From: a virus
Lineage: Duplodnaviria > Heunggongvirae > Uroviricota > Caudoviricetes
Length of the DNA stretch: 64,000 nt
Reading direction: 5' to 3' (one strand)
Virus record (IMG/VR): IMGVR_UViG_3300047557_002576
The notes beneath the pieces are model-generated. The model saw only the letters and a program-made list of their open reading frames with translations. It was not told the DNA's origin and did not search any database. Positions 5,322 to 59,102 of this stretch are shown here, in pieces (the stretch's first letter is position 1; each line of letters begins with the position of its first letter). Position numbers and translations under genes: made by a program.

Positions 5322-7259
5322 TTACGACCTCTTTAGTTCTCCGTTGGAATAACTTGATCTATAATAATCATTACTAGAGAATAAGACACCCGATGTGTCG
5401 TCACCAGAAGCGATTACGTCTTTAATCATATTTATTGTGCTTTTTGAAACATCAAATGCCAAATAAAGGCCTTTTAACCCAATAATATCATTCGATTCTG
5501 GGAATGCTTGTATTTCAATAATATCTTGATCAAGAGATGTTGAAGTAATATTTAAGGTTCCTAATAATATTTCTCCAGTTTCATAATTAACTGTACCGAC
5601 AGATTTAACAACTATTGGAGTTTTTAAAGATACAGTTGAACCAGAACCAACAGCAACAGGTGAATCTTTTACAATTGAAATCACTCCAGTTCCTTTCAAA
5701 GATCCATCTGAATTTTTTTCTGGAGTATCAGTAAGATACACGGTTTCACTTTCTCCAAGAATTTTGAATCCAGTAGATTTTATATTTTTACCCAATGGAT
5801 TTATGTGAAATTTATTTCCAAAACAAATTTCATACTGTGATGGGAAATTAATTAATGCTTTTAAATCTCTTCTAATTCTTACTTTTGTGATATTAGAAGT
5901 AATTGCAGAATCAGTTTTATCTATAACCTGGAGAACTTTACTGTATTTAAATCTTCCACCAAAAGAATTAAGGTCCGTAGAATTTGAATATGAGTTTAAA
6001 GAATTTATAACTCTGGTCTTTAAGTCATCTAAGGTATCAACTTGAGAATAATTATAATAGATTGAAGAATCTATTTCTACGTAAAGAATATTTAAATCAC
6101 TGATTTCAACATTAACACCAGCAACAGAATACTGCTTTAGTTTATTCTTAATTTGTTCTTTATTAAAATCAGAAACAAATGTCCCATTTTTTGGTTTTAT
6201 ACTAATTAAAACCTTACCAAATTGAGGAGGATTTAATTCTTCTCCTCCTACAACAGAAACTGATTCTGCTTCAGGATAAATTTTTGACTTTATGATAGTT
6301 TCATAATCCCTTGTGGTTACTGCCCTATACTGCGAGGAATAGAGTCTTGGGGCATAGTTTTTGATTGAGTCAATAGACTCTATATCAGACCCACTCTGAG
6401 ATGATTGTAAGGTGCTTACTGATATGTTATTTGTAACGACGATTCTATCTCTTTCATCTCTAAATGTGCCAGCAAAAGAAAATGAATTCACATCATTACC
6501 CTCTGTTCCTGAAGTAATGATATAGGTAACAGTTATAATTGAATTATTATCTAATTTTTTGCCAAATATTCCATCTCCGAAGAGAATTTCATACTTCTCA
6601 TCCTTGACTTCTTGAATTAAAAAGATCTCAGAGTCCTTATTTACCTGAAAAATATTGTCTACTAATTTAAATTGCCTGCCTATTCCGGTATCGCCAACAC
6701 CTTTTACATAAACTCTAATTGTTGAGGTGTCTATAAATGAATTATCTAATATAAATCTTTGATCTAATGATCCATCAACGGTAAATTGTTTTCTTAAGAA
6801 AGTTCCTTCTGTAATCTTAAGATTATTAAATTGTGCTATATTGTTCTGTACAGTTGCTGTTACATCTTCTGGGATAGAAAATACATAAGATGTCCCTGCA
6901 ACAGATCCAGTACAGACTAGTCCTGCTTGTAAAGTAAGAGTTTTTGTAGTAACACTTACTTGTGGAGAAAATGAAACGATCGCAGTTGCTGCAGTTCTTG
7001 ACTTTGGAACATATCCAATATTTCTAGCCAAAGATACAACATTTTCTCTGACAGTTGCCGAATCCAAAAAGGATTCGTTTACAATCATATTCGCATTAAA
7101 TGCCGTTATATACGTATTATACGCTAAGGTATCAATTAAAATAGAAAAGTTTGATCCTTCAAAATCAAAATCAGTGAAATTTGAATTTGCACGAAGATAA
7201 TCTTTAATAGATGTCTTTATCTGATCAAAATCTAAATTAGAAAACTTGGTGAAAGGCAT
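5322..7259 (-). CDS. baseplate wedge protein, gp6-like
   Basis: 645 aa, immediately downstream of gp25. The N-terminus (NFSILIDTLAYNTYITAFNANM) resembles the gp6 family as recalled from memory. Confidence 0.5.
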   Translation of the reverse strand: MPFTKFSNLDFDQIKTSIKDYLRANSNFTDFDFEGSNFSILIDTLAYNTYITAFNANMIVNESFLDSATVRENVVSLARNIGYVPKSRTAATAIVSFSPQVSVTTKTLTLQAGLVCTGSVAGTSYVFSIPEDVTATVQNNIAQFNNLKITEGTFLRKQFTVDGSLDQRFILDNSFIDTSTIRVYVKGVGDTGIGRQFKLVDNIFQVNKDSEIFLIQEVKDEKYEILFGDGIFGKKLDNNSIITVTYIITSGTEGNDVNSFSFAGTFRDERDRIVVTNNISVSTLQSSQSGSDIESIDSIKNYAPRLYSSQYRAVTTRDYETIIKSKIYPEAESVSVVGGEELNPPQFGKVLISIKPKNGTFVSDFNKEQIKNKLKQYSVAGVNVEISDLNILYVEIDSSIYYNYSQVDTLDDLKTRVINSLNSYSNSTDLNSFGGRFKYSKVLQVIDKTDSAITSNITKVRIRRDLKALINFPSQYEICFGNKFHINPLGKNIKSTGFKILGESETVYLTDTPEKNSDGSLKGTGVISIVKDSPVAVGSGSTVSLKTPIVVKSVGTVNYETGEILLGTLNITSTSLDQDIIEIQAFPESNDIIGLKGLYLAFDVSKSTINMIKDVIASGDDTSGVLFSSNDYYRSSYSNGELKRS

Positions 7260-10090: not shown

Positions 10091-10267
10091 TCAGTCAATT
10101 TCTTTTTCTGTCAAGATTAGATCGGATCCTTCGACATTAATTTCAATCTCAGTATCTTCATACCATGAGAGTTCATTGACCGCCCACTCTGGGATTACGA
10201 GATAATACTCACCAGAAATTGGATCGACTTGTAGTGGTTGAAAATTTTCTCCGGATTTTTTTTTCAT
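10091..10267 (-). CDS. small AbrB/MazE-like (swapped-hairpin) domain protein, 58 aa
   Basis: YYLVIPEWAVNELSWYEDTEIEINVEGSDLILTEKE fits the AbrB/SpoVT pattern (xxVxIP...G.eiei...lil). Shorter than the 60-aa track cut-off. Confidence 0.35.
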   Translation of the reverse strand: MKKKSGENFQPLQVDPISGEYYLVIPEWAVNELSWYEDTEIEINVEGSDLILTEKEID

Positions 10268-12178: not shown

Positions 12179-12371
12179 GTCGGTGTCAGTGGTGAATGAC
12201 TTTTACAACCTACACGACAGGCACGGATCGCACAAGCGGCAAACGGTTCGTGCTGATACCAAACGGGAAACTCATTCTATTAAAACCGCTGATGGGTCAG
12301 ACCCTTGACGGATGGGCGGGTCATGTGGTTTGAATCGGCATCTGATCTCATAACGCTTGCGGCATCTGCAT

Positions 12372-12413
12372 CATAACAGTAGCGTTATGTATGTCATAAC
12401 AGTAGCGTTATGT
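12372..12413. repeat. direct repeat CATAACAGTAGCGTTATGT, two adjacent copies; a third copy at 16101-16117
   Basis: Exact 19-mer at 12372-12390 and 12395-12413. A 17-nt core recurs at 16101-16117. Confidence 0.8.
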
Positions 12414-12445: not shown

Positions 12446-12570
12446 AAGTATAAAGAATAAACCAAGGATTGCAGAGTATAAAGAATAAACCAAGGATTGT
12501 AGAGTATAAAGAATAAACCAAGGATTGCAGAGTATAAAGAATAAACCAAGGATTGCAGAGTATAAAGAAT
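12446..12570. repeat. tandem array of 28-bp units AGAGTATAAAGAATAAACCAAGGATTGC, 4 full units plus a truncated fifth
   Basis: Read directly; units differ only at one position (C/T). Gapless, so not CRISPR. Confidence 0.9.
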
Positions 12571-12718: not shown

Positions 12719-12880
12719 TTATACTAACCTTGCAGAAACTCCACAAGACTTATAAAACTTAACCATTCTTTCTGCTTCTTCTTTAGTTGTAAAGGATTGT
12801 GTTCTCCATTCACAATCATTATAAGGAGTCTGATAAGTTATAGTGAAACCGATTGAATTGATTTGTTGATTGTTGTTCAT
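12719..12880 (-). CDS. small hypothetical protein (53 aa), AT-rich codon usage inside the GC island
   Basis: ORF MNNNQQINSIGFTITYQ... Confidence 0.3.
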   Translation of the reverse strand: MNNNQQINSIGFTITYQTPYNDCEWRTQSFTTKEEAERMVKFYKSCGVSARLV

Positions 12881-12884
12881 GATT

Positions 12885-13020
12885 GAATAATGATGGTGAT
12901 GTGTATAATCTAGTCGAGATGTGTATGTGTGTGTCTCGACTAGATTAATGTGTGTGTGTCTCGACTAGATTGATGTGTGTGTCTCGACTAGATTAATGTG
13001 TGCATTCTCGTCGAGATTCA
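12885..13020. repeat. cluster A of palindromic 13-bp iterons (ATCTCGACTAGAT/ATCTCGTCGAGAT), including a 3-4x tandem of 23-bp units GTCTCGACTAGATTAATGTGTGT
   Basis: Read directly. Same core as clusters at 16450-16572 and 19020-19265. Confidence 0.85.
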
Positions 13021-13399
13021 ATCCTTGCCTGTTGCATTTCACGAACCAAGTTTAGATAGTTGATTCGTGTAGTTTTTTCTACTTCAGCACAAGAATCTGT
13101 GCGATGTAGATGCCACTCACTGAACGCAATTTGCCATTCAGTGTGAAGTAATTTGAGGGCACTCATCAATAATGCCAGCGACTCATCACACTGTTAGGAT
13201 CATTGTACCAATCTTCCTCCTCATAAGTTGTAACTTTAGGAGTCATCCGAACAATCAGATCATCGGAGAGTGTGCAGACTCCAGTTGTAACTAACTGGAA
13301 AATCTCATCAGGTGTCAGAAAGGTTTCCATTGTGGTGTGGTGTGAACTTGAATCAGTATAAGGTGGAGAGGTGGGGGGTTGGTGCCCCCCGTGTGCAAC

Positions 13400-13663
13400 T
13401 TAATCGACTGTCACAATACAGCGGAACCGTTGCATCTCATCAGCGTAAGAGTCAAGATCCTCGCTTGAAGTATCCTCCCAAGCGATCCATTCATTGTCTC
13501 CCTTGTGAAGATCAATGCACACCAGATCAGGTGCATTCTTTGCAACCTGATTTACACTGCCGAAAAAGTCTACGTAGACTGCATCCCGTTGGGCGTAAAT
13601 CTCAGGTTCGGGATCCAGTGCGGTGATCCAGCGGATGCTGTCCAGGAAAGCGGTGAGATCCAT
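13400..13663 (-). CDS. hypothetical acidic protein
   Basis: Track ORF 13400..13771. Likely true start is MDLTAF at 13663, preceded by the CCACCACACCACACC leader. Confidence 0.45.
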   Translation of the reverse strand: MDLTAFLDSIRWITALDPEPEIYAQRDAVYVDFFGSVNQVAKNAPDLVCIDLHKGDNEWIAWEDTSSEDLDSYADEMQRFRCIVTVD

Positions 13664-13856: not shown

Positions 13857-14114
13857 TCAGGCGAACAGAGCAGCGATCCGGTCACGCTTGCGGATCTGAT
13901 CGGGGATGATGAACCACAGATCCCGCTTGCCGTTGTCGGAGCGGGTAGCGTCCAGGATGCCCCACTTCTCAAGATCGACCAGCACCGCATGAATGGTGCC
14001 CTTATGGCGGCGGGGGTCCATCCCCATCAGGCGAACCAGGTCAGAGCAGGTCTGCGGACCCTTGCTGATCAGGATGCTGCGGACGGCGACGCGGGTGAGC
14101 AGGTGGAAGTTCAT
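13857..14114 (-). CDS. winged-helix DNA-binding protein (putative transcriptional regulator)
   Basis: Track ORF 13857..14153; likely start MNFHLL at 14114. TIHAVLVDLEKWGILDATRSDNGKRDLWFII is wHTH-like. Confidence 0.45.
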   Translation of the reverse strand: MNFHLLTRVAVRSILISKGPQTCSDLVRLMGMDPRRHKGTIHAVLVDLEKWGILDATRSDNGKRDLWFIIPDQIRKRDRIAALFA

Positions 14115-14367
14115 CGGTGTGGTGTGGTGAACTGAGAGAATCATACAGACCACTGTGGCAGGTTCTGATCCAGGTTGTGCCAGTGGTCAGACTGTCCACC
14201 GATGCGGGTTTTGTGGGCGTGCTGGTGCCTATAATACGGGGACAATCGAAGGAGGTGCGGGGTAGCACTGTAGACGACAACGATCGACACCGACCCTGCC
14301 TTGAAATAATGGCGGAAAAAATACAAAGAAAGGGGGCGGATTGTGCCCCCTGTTTGATACTTTAGGA

Positions 14368-14646: not shown

Positions 14647-14717
14647 TGCTCCTCCGTTGTTGACTCTTACAGTATAAGGGTTGGAGTGGGGGTGCTGAGA
14701 CCCCCGTGTGCCAGTTC

Positions 14718-15395
14718 TCAGGGTGTCACAATGGCGTTAACTTTATTCTTTGATGCCCCGTGAGCAGGAAACGCTATCACAAACTCACGGTCTGCTACTT
14801 GACACAAACCACAAGTGGCACAAGTTACCTTACCAGGATGCAATGCTGCAGGGCAGGTAATCACCTTCCGCCCGTTGGTTGTTGTGAAGAATCGACGCTT
14901 TTCTTCACTGTTAACAACCGCAACGGCGGGAATCTTATACTCAGTCATTACACGGTCAGCATCATCAACCGACTCACATGATGCATTGACGGTAAATCCC
15001 ATTCCGTTTGCATTCTGTAGAGCGATCACGTTATGATCGTTCAGAATGTGGTGAGAATAGGTGAAACCTTTCTTACCTTTGTTTGCATCAATTAGGCGAC
15101 GCAGTTTAAGGTAATCAATGTTACCATCATTGTGAGGAAGATCTCCAGCGGTATTGTGCCGCCAGAGTGTATTCTTGGGGACGATTCGGCGGATCTGAGT
15201 AATAAACTCATCCCAATTTACGCCCGTTTCATTGCGGTTCAGGCGATCCCATTGCATACGCTCACGCCCAAGAGTAGCGTAGCATCCTGCATTGTAGAAT
15301 GGGCAGGTTGTAGGGCAGGATACCCGCTCCGTGCGTGTGGTGGTGATCGGACCAGTTTTAGCGTTACCTGAGACCTTTGTGATGGTGACGTTCAT
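14718..15395 (-). CDS. cysteine-rich hypothetical protein (225 aa)
   Basis: SCPTTCPFYNAGC and CATCGLC clusters; no confident family assignment. Cassette upstream. Confidence 0.5.
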   Translation of the reverse strand: MNVTITKVSGNAKTGPITTTRTERVSCPTTCPFYNAGCYATLGRERMQWDRLNRNETGVNWDEFITQIRRIVPKNTLWRHNTAGDLPHNDGNIDYLKLRRLIDANKGKKGFTYSHHILNDHNVIALQNANGMGFTVNASCESVDDADRVMTEYKIPAVAVVNSEEKRRFFTTTNGRKVITCPAALHPGKVTCATCGLCQVADREFVIAFPAHGASKNKVNAIVTP

Positions 15396-15947: not shown

Positions 15948-16256
15948 GGTTCGGTTCGGTGTGGGTTGTCGGGGTGGTGTGCCGCCGATGAGTGAATGAT
16001 GCCCCGCCAGAATCCAGCACCACAACCGACCTTGTGACACTACCAGGATTGTCACATCAGGCAAACGGACACTACTAATAGATGGGATGAGACATAATGA
16101 CATAACAGTAGCGTTATCATTAAGACAATAAAAAGGATCGGGCACCACCCCGATCCTCTGTACCCACATCACCTATACCATGCTAGGATTATCTGTTCTC
16201 TTACTCGCTGGGTAACTTTACTGAACAGTTGGAGGCAAACCCCTTCCTCCTTTGTG

Positions 16257-16445
16257 TTAGAATTGTATCATCCAGTCTGGGTCGTTGTCAAGTGCTGCCC
16301 AGAAGAAGTTTTTGCGATTCTGGGATGCAATGAACAGTTTGCCACCCTTGTGTTGTTCAACAATACATTCAGGGTTGCTGTCCATGAGATTGGCAAAACG
16401 ATTCTTTGCCTTGCGGGAAATTGGAGTGACGATTGCGGTTTGCAT
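16257..16445 (-). CDS. hypothetical protein (62 aa)
   Basis: ORF directly downstream of iteron cluster B. Confidence 0.35.
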   Translation of the reverse strand: MQTAIVTPISRKAKNRFANLMDSNPECIVEQHKGGKLFIASQNRKNFFWAALDNDPDWMIQF

Positions 16446-16449
16446 GATG

Positions 16450-16572
16450 AATCTCGATCTCGATGTGTGTAATCTAGATCATTGTGCAGGTCTCGTCGAG
16501 ATTGATGTGCCACTAGATGATGTGGCACATCTCGTCGAGTTTCAGAACTGGATCTCGTCTAGGGTTGGAACA
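16450..16572. repeat. cluster B of palindromic iterons (GTCTCGTCGAGATT, ATCTCGTCGAGTT, ATCTCGTCTAGGG, AATCTAGATCAT) plus inverted repeat GTGCCAC-TAGATGATG-TGGCAC
   Basis: Read directly. Confidence 0.8.
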
Positions 16573-16695
16573 TTATCTTGACTAGATTCACTAGAGTCCA
16601 TCCCATTACACAGTGCATCAAGAATCGAAAGGATGCTGTTCCCATCAGTGCCTAGACGAAGTTGAGCAATCAGAAGATCTTTGGTCATTGTAGTT

Positions 16696-16932
16696 TCAGT
16701 AATCAGGGGTTTCAGTAATTTTTACACCAAACGATTCGAGAACTTCATCATCATAATACTCACGAATCTCATTGATGAGTTCTTCTTCAGAATACTCGTT
16801 GTAGTTTGCAACGAGAGTGTCAAATACGAACTGTTCCATTGTCTTGTAATCCATGCCGTCCATTACGAACTCGGCATACTTCTCAACAAGAGTCGAGAAG
16901 TCATCAGTCCAGGTTTTTGCGTTGTTAGACAT
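16696..16932 (-). CDS. small acidic protein
   Basis: 78 aa, D/E/Y-rich. Confidence 0.5.
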   Translation of the reverse strand: MSNNAKTWTDDFSTLVEKYAEFVMDGMDYKTMEQFVFDTLVANYNEYSEEELINEIREYYDDEVLESFGVKITETPDY

Positions 16933-17114
16933 CAGAATACCAGATAGGGTGTGCCTTCGGAAATGAGACCAGGAATACTACAATGTGCAGAGCGAAGTCC
17001 AGTAACTTCATTATCCAGTAAAAGATCCTCCTCAAAGTTATAGAGAATGATCTCACGATCCAGTTGTTCTTCAGTCAGATTCTGAATCTGGGAGAGAAGA
17101 TCACGGTAAGTCAT
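16932..17114 (-). CDS. small acidic protein
   Basis: 60 aa; start/stop overlap with neighbours. Confidence 0.45.
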   Translation of the reverse strand: MTYRDLLSQIQNLTEEQLDREIILYNFEEDLLLDNEVTGLRSAHCSIPGLISEGTPYLVF

Positions 17115-17350
17115 CAGTCGTTCTCCTCAAAGAGTGAGCGAATCTTAGTCAATGCAGTGTAGTAATCTTCCAGATACTCACAATCTTCATCTTCATACTG
17201 ACGATTACTGTCCAGAAGATCATGAATCAGATCCCATTCGGAATCTGTAAAGAACTCTTTGATGGGGTGTGTGGTGGTGTTCATGTGATGTCTCAGGAAC
17301 AAAGGTAGTATGGCAGGGATCTGGTGAAAACACAAGACCCCTTGTGCCAC
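17114..17350 (-). CDS. small acidic protein
   Basis: 78 aa; coupled to the downstream gene. Confidence 0.45.
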   Translation of the reverse strand: MAQGVLCFHQIPAILPLFLRHHMNTTTHPIKEFFTDSEWDLIHDLLDSNRQYEDEDCEYLEDYYTALTKIRSLFEEND

Positions 17351-17530
17351 TTACTTAACTGTCACACATCATAGCAGATGGTGCCTTGAAACTCATCTTC
17401 AACCAGTTTGTTCTCATAATCATCCCAGAGGTGAAGATTCAGGAGAAAGTTGAGATGATCGACCCATTGTGCGTTGAGTTGCATGATGTGATCGTGATTC
17501 CGAATGATGTCGGTGTTGTAGTAGTTCATT

Positions 17531-17713
17531 TCAGAAGTCCCAGTTAGAGTTCAGAAAAGCATCAAAGGATTCTTCTTCAGCAGGGAACTCATCATCAAGA
17601 TCCCGCATCTCAAGGAGATCCCAAATCTCACCCGGAGCATCAGCGATTTCAATCCAGAGGGTGTCTTCCATGAGTGGTGGTGTCGTTGGTTGACTCTTGA
17701 AGTATAGGGGCAC
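17531..17713 (-). CDS. small acidic protein
   Basis: 60 aa. Cassette variant upstream (TATACTTCAAGAGTCAACC..CACCACCACTCATG). Confidence 0.45.
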   Translation of the reverse strand: MPLYFKSQPTTPPLMEDTLWIEIADAPGEIWDLLEMRDLDDEFPAEEESFDAFLNSNWDF

Positions 17714-17747
17714 TGTAGCGTCTTCTAGGTGCCCCTTAGGTCAGTTG

Positions 17748-18005
17748 TCAGAGTGGCACACAAGCACCTTGACGGACTTGAGAATAAGACTCACCAAACA
17801 ATCCGCCATTCTTATGGTGAATCCCATAATAATAGCGTCGTGTGTTCACTTCAGTGAGACCAAAGTGTTGTGCAATCGTCTTGAATGAATGAGTCGGATA
17901 ACACTTCTTATAAGCGTTAATCATTGTACACCAGAACTCTGCGTGTTTGGTGAATCGAATGCTCTTGGATGGATGAACTTGAACGGTTCTCATGGTACTT
18001 GACAA
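17748..18005 (-). CDS. small helix-turn-helix protein
   Basis: TIAQHFGLTEVNTRRYYYG is HTH-like. Confidence 0.4.
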   Translation of the reverse strand: MSSTMRTVQVHPSKSIRFTKHAEFWCTMINAYKKCYPTHSFKTIAQHFGLTEVNTRRYYYGIHHKNGGLFGESYSQVRQGACVPL

Positions 18006-18073
18006 AGTGTGATTTTGTGAGTAGACTAGGTTTGTCCCCGATGAAGATGAGAATCTAAGTTACTTTAAGACTC

Positions 18074-18577
18074 TTATACCGCTAGTGCCCCAGCAGGAAT
18101 GTCCACCAGTTCAGGATCCTGATCGGTGAACTGGTGCATATCGTAGCATACCCACTCACCCTCAGTGAACAGGTAAGAATATTCTTCACCTTTCGATAGA
18201 TACTCCTCTACCGAATCATCATGACGTGGTGGGGTATCTTCACCACGCTGAGAATAATAGAGTGGACCTTGTGCTACAGTTTCATTATTGAAACCAGCAT
18301 TAGTCCATGCAGAACTCATGTCACCTCCATCAATCAGTTCTGCTGCCTGATCATAGGAGTTGTAATGAGTCTTAAGAATACGACCCAACCAGGAAGGATA
18401 ACCATCCCAGTGATGATACGCAGAGAGCACAGAACCATCAGAGAGTTCAATGCCGATTCGTGATCTGGTTGCCATTGGTGTGGGGTGAACAACGATGTCA
18501 ATGTAGGGCATGAAGTGGGGGAAGGAACTCCCCCTTGTGTCAGTTGTTGAATCGTCACATTTTATATCCAGACACAA
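18074..18577 (-). CDS. hypothetical protein
   Basis: 167-aa track ORF; likely start at MPYIDIVV (18508). YHHWDGYPSWLG motif, no family recognised. Confidence 0.45.
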   Translation of the reverse strand: MCLDIKCDDSTTDTRGSSFPHFMPYIDIVVHPTPMATRSRIGIELSDGSVLSAYHHWDGYPSWLGRILKTHYNSYDQAAELIDGGDMSSAWTNAGFNNETVAQGPLYYSQRGEDTPPRHDDSVEEYLSKGEEYSYLFTEGEWVCYDMHQFTDQDPELVDIPAGALAV

Positions 18578-18729
18578 AGATATGACTCCTAAGTGATGAG
18601 AATTGAAAACACCAATCCTATCAGGAATCGTCCTGTTTTTTTGTTGAGTTGTGTCAATGATTTATTGTTTCCTATTTTATTATGCCGGAGACAGGATTTA
18701 ACTCCCTCTTGTATAACGAATGTTGTGTT

Positions 18730-18785
18730 TATTTATAAGGCAAAAGCGGCACTTGGATTTGATCCTTGTGCCGCTTTTTTTATTG
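18730..18785. terminator. intrinsic terminator hairpin (AAAAGCGGCAC...GTGCCGCTTTTTTT, bidirectional A/T runs) with an adjacent minus-strand TATAAATA late-promoter box at 18730-18737
   Basis: Read directly. GC stem flanked by an A-run and a T-run. Confidence 0.6.
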
Positions 18786-19019
18786 TCACAGTATACTTGA
18801 CTACCGCGAATTCTTATGCTAGTATAAATCTGAATAGTCTTTGACTTTAGCAGTGACTGATTCATCTCCTTCTAACTTTAGAAGTTCATGCCAATTAATA
18901 TCTTCCAAGTCTAAATCATCATAACACTCAAGGTCTAGTGTGACTTGTACTAGGCGTTTTTGTGCGATCATAAGAACTCGTGGTAGTGTGGTCTAGATTC
19001 TATCATGCGTAGTGACGAA

Positions 19020-19265
19020 ATGCAAGATCTTGATAGTCTTGCGAGTCTCGTGCATAATCCTCGTCGAGATCTGATGCATAATGCCCATCCTCGTCGAGAT
19101 TATAATCGTTGCTGTAAGAATAGTCGAGATCGTAATCGTCGTACATAACTCGTCGAGATTCTGTGAGTGACTTGATTATTGTACCATAAAACTCGACGAG
19201 ATGCAAGTGTTCTCACAGGTCTCGTCGAGATTCACATGATTCTATATATGCGTCTCGTCTAGATT
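19020..19265. repeat. cluster C of about 9 palindromic iterons, (A/T)CTCGTCGAGAT in both orientations
   Basis: Read directly. Sits between the terminator and the plus-strand endonuclease gene; the ORFs called here are spurious. Confidence 0.85.
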
Positions 19266-19526
19266 TTGTGTGGGTCTCATGATATAACAATAGTATTATA
19301 TAATTATGTGTGGGTCTGTGAACTTTTGTGGAACCTGCTTGACTTTTTTGCGATCTCGTGGTAGAGTGCGGGGTTAGTGGCATATAAGGACTCATATTTA
19401 TAATGCTTATAAAACACGCAAATATATTTTTCCACAATTAAACTTAAGTTATCCACATAGTTGTTAAAAACATAAGAAGAAAACAAACTATATAAAAAAG
19501 AATAATATACTATACAAATAATACCA

Positions 19527-20339
19527 ATGTCTCAGGGTATAATCTACTTAATTACTAATAAAGTAAATGGTCACAAATACGTGGGACAAACTACTCAACC
19601 TATGAATAAAAGATGGTCTGCTCACATTCAAGAATCAATTAGAATGTCGAATAAACCATTACATAGAGCATTTCGCAAATATGGTGTAGATAAATTTGTA
19701 ATTAAACAAATTGATGAATGTGACATATCGATACTAAATGAAAGAGAAGAATATTGGATAAAACATTATAACACATTTGAAAGTGCTGAAGGGTACAATG
19801 CTACAAGTGGTGGAGATAGACCTTCTTTTAGTCAAGAAACTAAAGATAAACTATCAAATATAATGTCTGATATTGAAAGAACAGACATTTGGGTTAATAA
19901 TATTAAAAACTCACTCATCGAAAAAGCAAAAAAAGAATCTTGGGGATTTTTAAAAGAAAGTAATAGAGGAAATGGTAAGCACTCTGCTTTAAAAATAAAA
20001 GGAACAAATATTGAAACTGGTGAAATAAAAGAATGGAATAGTGTCTCAGAAGCAGCGATAGAAGTTGGTGGATCTGTTAAAAAGAATGGTAATATACTAC
20101 GTGCTGCTCGTAAAGGATATAAATGCTATGGTTACACTTGGGAAATATTAGAAGATAAAACTAAAAAGAAATCAATATTTGGGGTTAACAAAAAAACCAA
20201 AATGATTGGACCAAAATATGAAAGTATAAGACAAGCAGCAAGAGAAGTTGGTGATGGTGGTGCGGGAAGTGGAATTATAAAAAGTTTAAGGAATCCAGGA
20301 AAGTATAGTTGGAAAGGATATTATTGGTATTACCTATGA
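19527..20339 (+). CDS. GIY-YIG homing endonuclease (Seg/I-TevI-like), 270 aa
   Basis: GIIYLITNKVNGHKYVGQT is the GIY-YIG motif; C-terminal K-rich DNA-binding region. One of very few plus-strand genes. Confidence 0.8.
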   Translation: MSQGIIYLITNKVNGHKYVGQTTQPMNKRWSAHIQESIRMSNKPLHRAFRKYGVDKFVIKQIDECDISILNEREEYWIKHYNTFESAEGYNATSGGDRPSFSQETKDKLSNIMSDIERTDIWVNNIKNSLIEKAKKESWGFLKESNRGNGKHSALKIKGTNIETGEIKEWNSVSEAAIEVGGSVKKNGNILRAARKGYKCYGYTWEILEDKTKKKSIFGVNKKTKMIGPKYESIRQAAREVGDGGAGSGIIKSLRNPGKYSWKGYYWYYL

Positions 20340-35804: not shown

Positions 35805-36388
35805 TCATTACCTTGAATTGGTTGAGTAACTTTACGAATTGTGTATGTTCCATCATTATTATCTACCCAATAAACTTGATCTCCCTCTTGAAGATTTGCC
35901 GCATCTAAAAGATCTTCTGGAAAAGAAACATAATATTGACCAGACGGATCATCCATTTCCACGGGAAGAATCCACTTTTTAATTTTATCTTTTACTTCTG
36001 GTGTCCATTCATATCCACCTTCCTTGCGGATATGATCTATTTGTTCGTTAAGATTTGTTTTGTTATTCATATGATTCAATGCTTCTTCTGGATAATAATT
36101 TTCTTCCCAAAAGTCATTCCATGCGTTTTGACACTCTTTTGTGGTATCACCATCACGAAGATCTCCTACAGTTGCCTGCCAAGCATCTTTGAATTTCTCA
36201 TCAAACTCTTCAATAAAATATCCAAGAAACTCATATGCTGCCATTGTCATTTTTTCAGCACGGTCTTTTTGATTATAAGAAAGTGCTTCATTTGCAACGT
36301 CAATCATTTCACGGGCAGAAACAACCTTTGAAATAATCATCTCAAGGGCATTCATCGTGTCCCATACACGCTGATACTTAACGGGCAT
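35798..36388 (-). CDS. hypothetical protein with C-terminal AbrB/MazE-like swapped-hairpin domain
   Basis: YYVSFPEDLLDAANLQEGDQVYWVDNNDGTYTIRK. Confidence 0.45.
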   Translation of the reverse strand: MPVKYQRVWDTMNALEMIISKVVSAREMIDVANEALSYNQKDRAEKMTMAAYEFLGYFIEEFDEKFKDAWQATVGDLRDGDTTKECQNAWNDFWEENYYPEEALNHMNNKTNLNEQIDHIRKEGGYEWTPEVKDKIKKWILPVEMDDPSGQYYVSFPEDLLDAANLQEGDQVYWVDNNDGTYTIRKVTQPIQGNEC

Positions 36389-49347: not shown

Positions 49348-49565
49348 AGTCCCGTATCAGCATCAATAGTAAAGGATGGTTTTTCAGTAATAATTTCTAC
49401 ATTCATATCAGACATAATGTTTTCTAATTTTTCCATCACTTTTTGTCGTGCATCGCTGGTGATAGAACCCCCCCAGTTAGAAAAACACAAAGAATAATTT
49501 AGAGTATCTACACAGATATATAGGTCAATTGCTGATAGTTTATGATTAGTCATTACCAAGCACAC
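49344..49565 (-). CDS. hypothetical protein
   Basis: 73 aa. Confidence 0.4.
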   Translation of the reverse strand: MCLVMTNHKLSAIDLYICVDTLNYSLCFSNWGGSITSDARQKVMEKLENIMSDMNVEIITEKPSFTIDADTGL

Positions 49566-49843
49566 TCCACATTCACATAAAAACCAAGTTTATCTTTGAG
49601 ACATTCTATCATATACTTACGAAACTCATAAGCAGTTGGAGAACACTCTTCAATCAGAACATTGTACTCAATATCTCCATCCATATGGTAGGTTAGATAA
49701 ACATCAACAACACTCAAATTACATTCATTGACTCCATTAAACATTTTTTTGGAGAGACTTTTCTCCCGTAAAACTTCTTTTGCTGCTTCTTTGATTTTGA
49801 TGAAGTTATTATAAACATATTCATTATCAAATATCAAAGTCAT
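49553..49843 (-). CDS. hypothetical protein
   Basis: 96 aa. Confidence 0.4.
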   Translation of the reverse strand: MTLIFDNEYVYNNFIKIKEAAKEVLREKSLSKKMFNGVNECNLSVVDVYLTYHMDGDIEYNVLIEECSPTAYEFRKYMIECLKDKLGFYVNVECAW

Positions 49844-58995: not shown

Positions 58996-59102
58996 TATCT
59001 TTAAGTTACTTAATCCTTATCTTCAATGGAGACAAACCTAGTCTAGCAGTATTATGGGTATTGTGTCAAGTCATTATCTAAATAATACAAAAAAGTCTTA
59101 GA

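Follow-up and report, generated by a model that had tools for sequence, protein, structure and literature searches.

What is read at a short palindrome that is repeated, in imperfect copies, at three places of a phage genome? This question is raised by a stretch of 64,000 nucleotides from the virus record IMGVR_UViG_3300047557_002576, referred to here as the window, which belongs to a cyanomyovirus related to Synechococcus phage S-SRM01. A first-pass annotation of the window had pointed out a 13-bp palindrome, ATCTCG-N-CGAGAT, clustered at three loci, and had interpreted the clusters as operator or iteron arrays for a dimeric DNA-binding protein. The reading preferred here, which is considered somewhat likelier to be right than wrong, is that the clusters are operator arrays through which a phage-encoded dimeric DNA-binding protein would control three early transcription units. 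The operator part of the earlier interpretation is in keeping with the dyad symmetry, the apparently phased spacing, the fixed register with predicted promoters and the clustering of the sites, while no positive evidence was obtained for an iteron or origin role or for a recombination hotspot. The element appears to be a real and strongly conserved cis-regulatory code, which would add one more system to the phage operators already known.

A palindrome confined to three clusters

Exact copies of the 13-mer ATCTCGNCGAGAT are absent from the whole window, and ATCTCGTCGAGAT must therefore be understood as a consensus rather than a literally present sequence. When up to two mismatches are allowed, 16 matches appear, compared with 1.69 ± 1.14 in dinucleotide shuffles, none of 100 of which reaches 16. 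The 9-bp core CT[AC]G-N-C[GT]AG (CTMGNCKAG) is found 15 times in the 64 kb, versus 0.8 copies in first-order Markov simulations (maximum 4), and within the island at 10–19.5 kb 14 copies stand against 0.33 expected. The clustering noticed at first is borne out, as 14 of the 15 cores fall into three stretches totalling about 450 bp, namely cluster A (12908–13017), cluster B (16451–16587) and cluster C (19058–19264), and a single core, at 59038, lies outside them. The local genes are encoded on the minus strand, on which the motif reads AATCTCGACGAGAC.

The arrangement is shared with S-SRM01 (Kyanoviridae). Megablast aligns window positions 16128–19252 to this phage with 79% identity, in a block that ends at 19252, the edge of cluster C. 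All three clusters recur syntenically in S-SRM01, with sites that are kept and flanks that drift. The motif is not scattered over the genome: 13 of the 15 core sites of the complete S-SRM01 sequence (240,842 bp) lie within 85.57–91.0 kb (5.4 kb), and about 6 are expected genome-wide. The array-bearing island is the highest-GC stretch of the window (44–51% at 10–19.5 kb versus 30–38% elsewhere), as is the region of 85–95 kb in S-SRM01 (41–42% versus 30–39%), which suggests a horizontally exchanged module.

A two-site pattern matched at least 120 viral contigs, about 95 of them with cyanophage-like GC content. As these loci had been selected via the motif itself, loci were ascertained again through the neighbouring gene p50 (18819–18971, minus strand), the second gene of the cluster C unit, which lacks the motif and serves as a motif-independent anchor. 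A p50 relative is encoded by 516 viral contigs. Of the 66 best p50-ascertained loci that extend far enough, 63 carry sites in the 700 bp upstream (mean 5.6), and the remaining sites are confined to further discrete clusters. The isolates with arrays are S-SRM01, S-T4, P-SSM2/P-SSM5 and the single-cell virus AG-345-F15, with a variant form in S-SKS1; in P-SSM2, array sequence is found at 66,000–66,190 of NC_006883. The p50-encoding isolates S-SM2, Bellamy, SynMITS9220M01 and S-SCSM1 have the promoters but no sites, and DSL-LC03, S-CAM9 and S-PRM1 are also without sites. At the place of cluster C, S-CAM7 (L207 3600–3780) has an unrelated repeat, CGCAG(C/T)ATATA, and S-SKS1 (L205 3600–4000) together with loci L148, L179, L186 and L297 has ACGAGAT direct repeats 11 bp apart instead of palindromes. 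Both kinds of repeat may be specificity variants of the same system.

A search with the two-site pattern over 185,579 species genomes, which detects paired sites and not single ones, returned 20 matches and no cyanobacterial one. At least one of the matches, the 5,171-bp contig L228, looks like a mis-binned phage contig because it holds a p62 gene and the cluster B hairpin, both described below. A host transcription-factor regulon borrowed by the phage was rejected, since no cyanobacterial arrays of paired sites were found. This, taken with the different repeats of related phages, favours a phage-encoded specificity. No Rfam family and no tRNA was matched in the window, and no description of the element was found in the literature under the motif sequence, cyanophage early promoters or palindromes, or repressors and operators, nor in the description of S-SRM01 or the Sullivan 2010 comparative paper. 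The sole sequence match in the literature, in the DLP6 terminator table, was set aside as coincidental.

The consensus over 605 unique sites from related viral contigs is (A)ATCTCG-T-CGAGAT(T), also given as AATCTCG(T/A)CGAGATT, and as a consensus the palindrome had been correctly described. The profile of these sites is symmetric to ±6, with the right half stronger than the left, and the centre is nearly always A or T. The joint counts at positions -2/+2 are CG 343, CT 79, AG 68 and AT 22, and the odds ratio of about 1.4 means that the half-sites vary independently, with no hairpin-type compensation. Double variants, as looked for under the idea of a small RNA hairpin, are not enriched at these positions of the 605-site set. 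The spacing between sites peaks at 22–24, 31–33, 39–43 and 60–67 bp, near 2, 3, 4 and 6 helical turns, with the limit that the loci are homologous and the counts not independent. The missing compensation, the helical-turn spacing and the position of one site upstream of the predicted start of promoter P1 (see below) together argue for a dimeric protein on double-stranded DNA and against a small RNA hairpin.

Arrays over predicted early promoters

Cluster C, on the minus strand, contains six full 13-mers, at 19058, 19088, 19147, 19190, 19219 and 19252, and a partial one at 19120–19130; the earlier figure of about nine sites was an overcount. The site at 19190 is flipped and lies within a promoter spacer, the site at 19147 abuts the ATG of an acidic open reading frame (ORF), and those at 19120 (partial), 19088 and 19058 lie within this ORF. 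Over 51 unique loci ascertained through the protein, the site centres recur at about -8, -50, -82, -112 and -148 relative to the acidic-ORF ATG, and the site at -50 is usually flipped. The promoter in question, P1 (19178–19206, minus strand), is a predicted sigma70-type promoter with the -35 element TTGCAT (19206–19201), the -10 element TACAAT (19183–19178) and a 17-nt spacer that holds the site core at 19200–19192. About 48 of the 51 loci follow the pattern cTTGCAt-CTCGTCGAG-N7-8(TGn)-TAtAAT; in the conserved arrangement, about 22 nt and aatCTCGACGAG-N2-5-ATG come next. In Prochlorococcus phage P-SSM2 the counterpart of P1 matches TTGACA-N17-TATAAT perfectly, and its spacer likewise holds the site (TTGACA-at-CTCGACTAG-atctgg-TATAAT).

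A second predicted promoter farther upstream, TTCACA-N16-TATAAT (19295–19322, minus strand; 11 of 12 matches), reads into cluster C, and its counterpart in many relatives is TTGACA-N17-TAGAAT with a site directly after it. Four copies of ATGTCATAACAGTAGCGTTAT (minus strand ATAACGCTACTGTTATGACAT) are found at 12368–12411, 16097–16117 and 19279–19299. The last of these stands directly after the -10 element of the upstream promoter, which suggests a shared initial transcribed sequence among the early promoters.

The acidic ORF (19003–19146, minus strand; 47 amino acids, MYDDYDLDYSYSNDYNLDEDGHYASDLDEDYARDSQDYQDLAFRHYA) contains LDE codons that double as sites. It has 74 unique homologues with a conserved LAYRHYA end, and its indels relative to S-SRM01 are multiples of 3 nt; judged by these features of the sequence, it is a real gene. 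In the protein-ascertained set, the codons for LDE read CTCGACGAG 51 times out of 70 (73%), compared with about 2% expected from the codon usage of neighbouring genes, and the nucleotide motif itself is therefore under selection, not only via the protein. This result was first obtained on motif-ascertained loci, and its repetition on the protein-ascertained loci agreed.

Cluster B, also on the minus strand, comprises full sites at 16490–16502, 16529–16541 and 16552–16564, plus half-sites. The site at 16552–16564 lies within the final codons (LDEI) of a 48-amino-acid ORF, tandem half-sites at 16451–16463 stand just ahead of the p62 ATG (16445), and ATCTAGAT at 16472–16479 and a weak site at 16575–16587 complete the cluster. 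Its layout is kept in 26 loci and in S-SRM01. The stop codon of the 48-amino-acid ORF is followed by a site and a hairpin, and then by a site with TCGACG 17 nt from a conserved TAGATT, CACACA, the tandem half-sites and the p62 ATG; the site with TCGACG overlaps a -35-like hexamer. A predicted -10 element of this cluster lies at about 16471–16476. The hairpin, TGTGCCAC-N8-GTGGCACA (16506–16529, minus strand), has an 8-bp stem between two cluster B sites, and with it the GTGCCAC/GTGGCAC inverted repeat reported earlier is present. Across 17 loci 97% of the cells are paired and 3 of the 8 pairs show compensatory changes; none of 500 shuffles is equally good, and G-U pairs occur in the mRNA sense only. 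The hairpin is probably an RNA stem-loop on the early transcript, which might serve as a terminator, attenuator or stabiliser. Cluster B combines this covarying hairpin with a promoter-like element, and no comparable stem-loop is seen in clusters A and C. The gene directly downstream, p62 (16257–16445, minus strand), has a predicted structure of a helix and an SH3/Tudor/KOW-like barrel, with a predicted local distance difference test score (pLDDT) of 92. Its distribution does not follow that of the arrays, and p62 is taken to be a target of control, not a binder of the sites. The fold class of p62 takes in RNA-polymerase-binding Tudor domains, and a second p62 copy is present in S-SRM01 at 49543–49743.

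Cluster A, on the same strand, lies between the p54 ORF and the p53 start codon (12880) and consists of five full 13-mers, at 12908, 12933, 12958, 12981 and 13005, with CACACA-rich spacers. The 23-bp tandem described there earlier is recovered by Tandem Repeats Finder with a period of 23–25 and 3.3 copies at 12925–13002. The homologues of p53 (12719–12880, minus strand), the gene directly downstream, show the same upstream arrangement in 15 loci, with 3–5 sites and CACACA spacers. Just downstream of p53 there is a 28-bp tandem repeat, AGTATAAAGAATAAACCAAGGATTGCAG (12447–12570; 4.4 copies, 97% matches). In S-SRM01, an HNH gene (L001 5110–5547) takes the place of p53 beside the equivalent of cluster A.

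The motif, its clustering, its conservation, its selection at the DNA level and its register with promoter-like elements are established features of these loci. We infer from them activity of the predicted promoters and a protein that occupies the sites and represses rather than activates; its identity, discussed below, is likewise proposed. In such a mechanism, the unit bound would be a dyad site of 13–15 bp, AATCTCG-W-CGAGATT, with the half-site TCTCG or TCTAG, present in several copies. The arrays would overlie predicted sigma70-type promoters and 5′ leaders of three minus-strand early units, namely the acidic ORF and p50 (cluster C), p62 (cluster B) and p53 (cluster A). The sites, about three to four helical turns apart, would occupy the promoter spacer, the region over -10/+1, the stretch before the start codon and the inside of the first ORF. 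Cooperative binding would occlude the host RNA polymerase, and very strong early promoters would be shut down once the regulator has accumulated. In a T4-like phage, this would amount to an early shut-off of the Cro type.

Cluster C had earlier been placed between a strong terminator and a GIY-YIG endonuclease gene and considered a possible control of the latter. The supposed terminator (18933–18955, plus strand) lies inside the conserved p50 coding sequence. Control of the endonuclease is not supported either, as the array also occurs in S-SRM01, P-SSM2 and S-T4 without an annotated GIY-YIG gene beside it, and the GIY-YIG family is near a cluster in just 27 of about 95 motif-found contig loci. 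The array is built around the minus-strand acidic-ORF/p50 operon, and the endonuclease faces a separate predicted promoter, TTGACT-N17-TAGAGT (19339–19367, plus strand), which is conserved and stands back-to-back with cluster C. The homing endonuclease gene itself occupies 19527–20339 and adjoins cluster C. In relatives (L001, L125-L203, L206, L232, L234) the divergent promoter takes the form TTGACT/TTGACA-N17-TAnnnT and points away from cluster C. In most of them it faces no annotated gene, only 100–250 nt of tandem 12–28-nt repeats, with units such as ccttataaatgcc on the early-gene strand, which might represent either a non-coding RNA or several late-promoter-like TATAAAT boxes in succession.

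The island also holds six intergenic cassettes of about 27–47 nt, located at 13371–13417, 14686–14732, 16030–16056, 17338–17373, 18515–18561 and 18762–18797 and lying about 1.2–1.3 kb apart. All contain TGTGNCA-N11-13-TGTCACA, and the three longest have a GC-rich hairpin GGGGGG...CCCCCC. They are reminiscent of the PeSL terminator/promoter cassettes of T4-type phages.

Candidate binding proteins

Two proteins encoded nearby, a winged helix-turn-helix protein (13857–14153) and a helix-turn-helix protein (17748–18005), had been put forward as the binders of the palindrome. Neither has a DNA-binding match in Pfam, PHROG or NCBIfam. Both are absent from the complete S-SRM01 genome, which bears all three arrays, and they are present in just 11 and 6 of the loci collected, respectively. 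A protein missing from S-SRM01 is not the general binder, and both candidates were therefore abandoned in this role. The product of p50 was considered as a ribbon-helix-helix protein and rejected, as its model (pLDDT 79) has almost no regular secondary structure and no two-helix pattern; no recognisable DNA-binding fold is seen in it.

The best current candidate for the site-binding protein is p58, an acidic, MazE/AbrB/SpoVT-like protein of 58 amino acids encoded at 10091–10267 on the minus strand, at the downstream end of the same early region, and p58 is proposed to bind TTGACAatCTCGACTAGatctggTATAAT. Further p58 entries are PSSM2_102 and QPX48150. The Pfam MazE/AbrB family (PF04014) is matched in 10 of 22 members of the p58 family, with a best E value of 1.7e-4, and hhalign places p58 against AbrB and MazE in the correct register with a probability of 16–18%. 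Several p58 homologues are labelled MazE antitoxin by the Joint Genome Institute (JGI), and the S-SRM01 orthologue is labelled in GenBank as a DNA-binding domain protein. The gene is present in all six array-bearing isolate lineages and missing from eight array-less ones, with the one exception of Sf-CH8; this co-occurrence has a Fisher p of 0.0014, which is not corrected for phylogeny. Of the 14 p58-anchored contigs that have 9 kb or more of upstream sequence, at least 12 carry arrays there, at a distance of 1.7–9.7 kb, and no array is found on the downstream side, which was covered for up to 10 kb in 30-plus loci. The predicted promoter of p58 itself, TTGATC-N17-TATAAT, is without sites, which indicates that the protein would not regulate its own synthesis.

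Two further observations concern this family. A motif, CTACAAAGTGTTACG(G/A)AAG, is found upstream of p58 in Sf-CH8 (L231 ~2420–2440) and P-SSM2 (L232 ~5870–5890), and it is not present upstream of the window p58. A second, larger protein encoded in the window at 35822–36148 (minus strand) is related to S-SRM01 QPX48095 (36% identity over 152 amino acids), whose annotation names a DNA-binding domain protein of the AbrB/MazE/SpoVT family.

Alternative explanations and known systems

Several observations weigh against operator arrays and against p58 as their binder. The promoter calls are consensus matches, and the -35 element of the window P1, TTGCAT, falls below the scanner threshold. The spacing and position statistics are drawn from homologous, phylogenetically non-independent loci. 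A large number of the sites belong to transcribed leaders or coding sequence and mostly point the same way, which makes a role at the RNA level possible. As for the protein, p58 is strongly acidic, with basic residues at the N-terminus only; its window copy alone has no Pfam or NCBIfam match, and the family profile searched against the PDB returned only noise and no solved MazE/AbrB structure. In Sf-CH8, p58 is present although the p50 locus is without an array, and the co-occurrence of p58 and arrays may reflect mere shared synteny within one mobile early-gene module.

An element acting in RNA, that is a site in the early mRNAs for an RNA-binding translational repressor or an endoribonuclease, would have its analogues in T4 RegA and RegB, which act on early messages. 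The acidic ORF, p62 and p53 invariably have a site or half-site directly against their start codons, the sites run on into coding sequence, and in 46 of 47 unique loci the central base of the start-proximal site, read on the coding strand, is A. The upstream promoter would place every site in the transcript, and a covarying RNA hairpin lies between two cluster B sites. Yet the sites keep full two-fold symmetry, for which an RNA-binding protein has no need, and the compensation to be expected of a hairpin is missing at -2/+2. The P1 spacer site most often has the flipped orientation and precedes the predicted start of P1, the spacings match the DNA helical repeat, and the variant phages keep their ACGAGAT units 11 bp apart. 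The RNA-level explanation is judged unlikely. A similarly doubtful explanation makes the arrays a replication origin with iterons, or a recombination or homing hotspot for the exchange of early-gene cassettes. The 5–9 dyad repeats per array, some of them in coding sequence, would suit it, as would the short conserved AT-rich stretch (gcATATATAc) that adjoins them and the strong divergent promoters on the flanks. Homing endonuclease genes stand by the arrays (GIY-YIG in the window and in the minority of motif-found loci counted above, HNH in S-SRM01), the megablast block to S-SRM01 breaks off at the edge of cluster C, and in both phages the arrays lie within an island of high GC content. Against it, the palindromes form three distinct arrays in a stretch of about 6 kb, and every array keeps a set position relative to a start codon and a predicted promoter; family searches of the neighbouring proteins found no recognisable initiator gene adjoining, and the AT-rich stretch is just ~9–11 bp long. 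The cumulative GC skew of S-SRM01 is monotonic, with no inflection at 85–91 kb, although skew is uninformative as an origin indicator here because this genome is transcribed almost wholly in one direction.

The motif could also belong to an unusual class of promoters, as an intrinsic activating box that the host RNA polymerase reads directly, together with a particular (group 2) sigma factor or with a co-factor from the phage. The TCGAC and GAGACA portions of the motif resemble -35 hexamers: the sites are typically followed by AC(A), which yields GAGACA, and a cluster B site provides the -35-like TCGACG exactly 17 nt from the conserved TAGATT. The direct repeats 11 bp apart in the variant phages are like response-regulator boxes. 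The cluster C promoter, however, has a good -35 and an extended -10 element of its own with the site in the spacer, and the 605-site profile reveals no fixed distance between the sites and a -10-like motif. Sites also occur inside the ORF, and the equivalent promoters of S-SM2 and Bellamy do without any sites. An activating box is considered very unlikely.

The operator reading gains its interest from the biology of the hosts. Much of the marine Synechococcus and Prochlorococcus is killed by T4-like cyanophages, whose timing of gene expression is poorly understood; to our knowledge, these phages lack the MotA/AsiA/Alt/Mod machinery of T4. The palindrome code is conserved, sharply localised and laid over near-consensus predicted early promoters, and it reaches most of more than 500 viral contigs as well as the cultivable model phages P-SSM2, S-T4 and S-SRM01. 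It gives a concrete cis-element and one candidate trans-factor, and the acidic ORF offers a clear case of coding sequence constrained by an embedded DNA site. The arrays may further mark a higher-GC mobile early-gene module exchanged among cyanophages. A bolder proposal, improbable as a whole, is that the arrays and the acidic ORF are the missing early-to-middle switch of array-bearing T4-like cyanophages. The regulator, perhaps p58, would coat three consensus-strength early promoters, and the operator sequence would at the same time encode the LDE repeats of an acidic, DNA-mimic-like peptide that could titrate or time the regulator. The ACGAGAT and CGCAGYATATA repeats would then be co-evolved specificity swaps of a mobile module in marine and freshwater cyanophages.

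Related known systems include the lambdoid Cro/cI operators (OR, OL) and other repressor-operator sets of phages, where a Cro-type factor turns early transcription down in lytic growth. As in these operators, several neighbouring dyad sites cover the core elements (-35, spacer and -10) of strong early promoters, which here are predicted, and a small dimeric phage protein would by analogy read them. Unlike them, the site is of 13–15 bp rather than 17, and 5–9 sites per array stand 24–42 bp apart through the leader into the first ORF; three such arrays belong to a strictly lytic T4-like cyanophage in which no helix-turn-helix repressor is identified. Proteins of the MazE/AbrB/SpoVT family (PF04014) are small dimers on palindromic or repeated promoter sites, and p58 matches this domain at the family level. 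It differs from MazE systems in being very acidic, in having no evident toxin partner beside it and in the lack of autoregulation. The arrays of ribbon-helix-helix proteins (omega of pSM19035, ParR/parC, CopG) consist of short repeats in both orientations over promoters, bound cooperatively on one face of the DNA. Their repeats are contiguous units of 7–11 bp, unlike the spaced 13-bp palindromes described here, for which no ribbon-helix-helix protein was found. The iterons of the lambda origin inside gene O and of T4 oriE are repeated dyad sites, partly coding, near AT-rich DNA and active promoters; here, in contrast, no initiator gene is identified and the three arrays keep a promoter and start-codon register. 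The PeSL cassettes of T4-type phages (Arbiol et al. 2010, PMC2839356) are short repeated units that join a sigma70-like promoter to a hairpin terminator; they occur among small non-essential early ORFs of a plastic genome region and are associated with mosaic boundaries. As described there, PeSLs have no arrays of palindromic protein sites, whereas the defining unit here is a 13-bp palindrome at three loci only. Of the three clusters, it is cluster B that has both a promoter-like element and a stem-loop.

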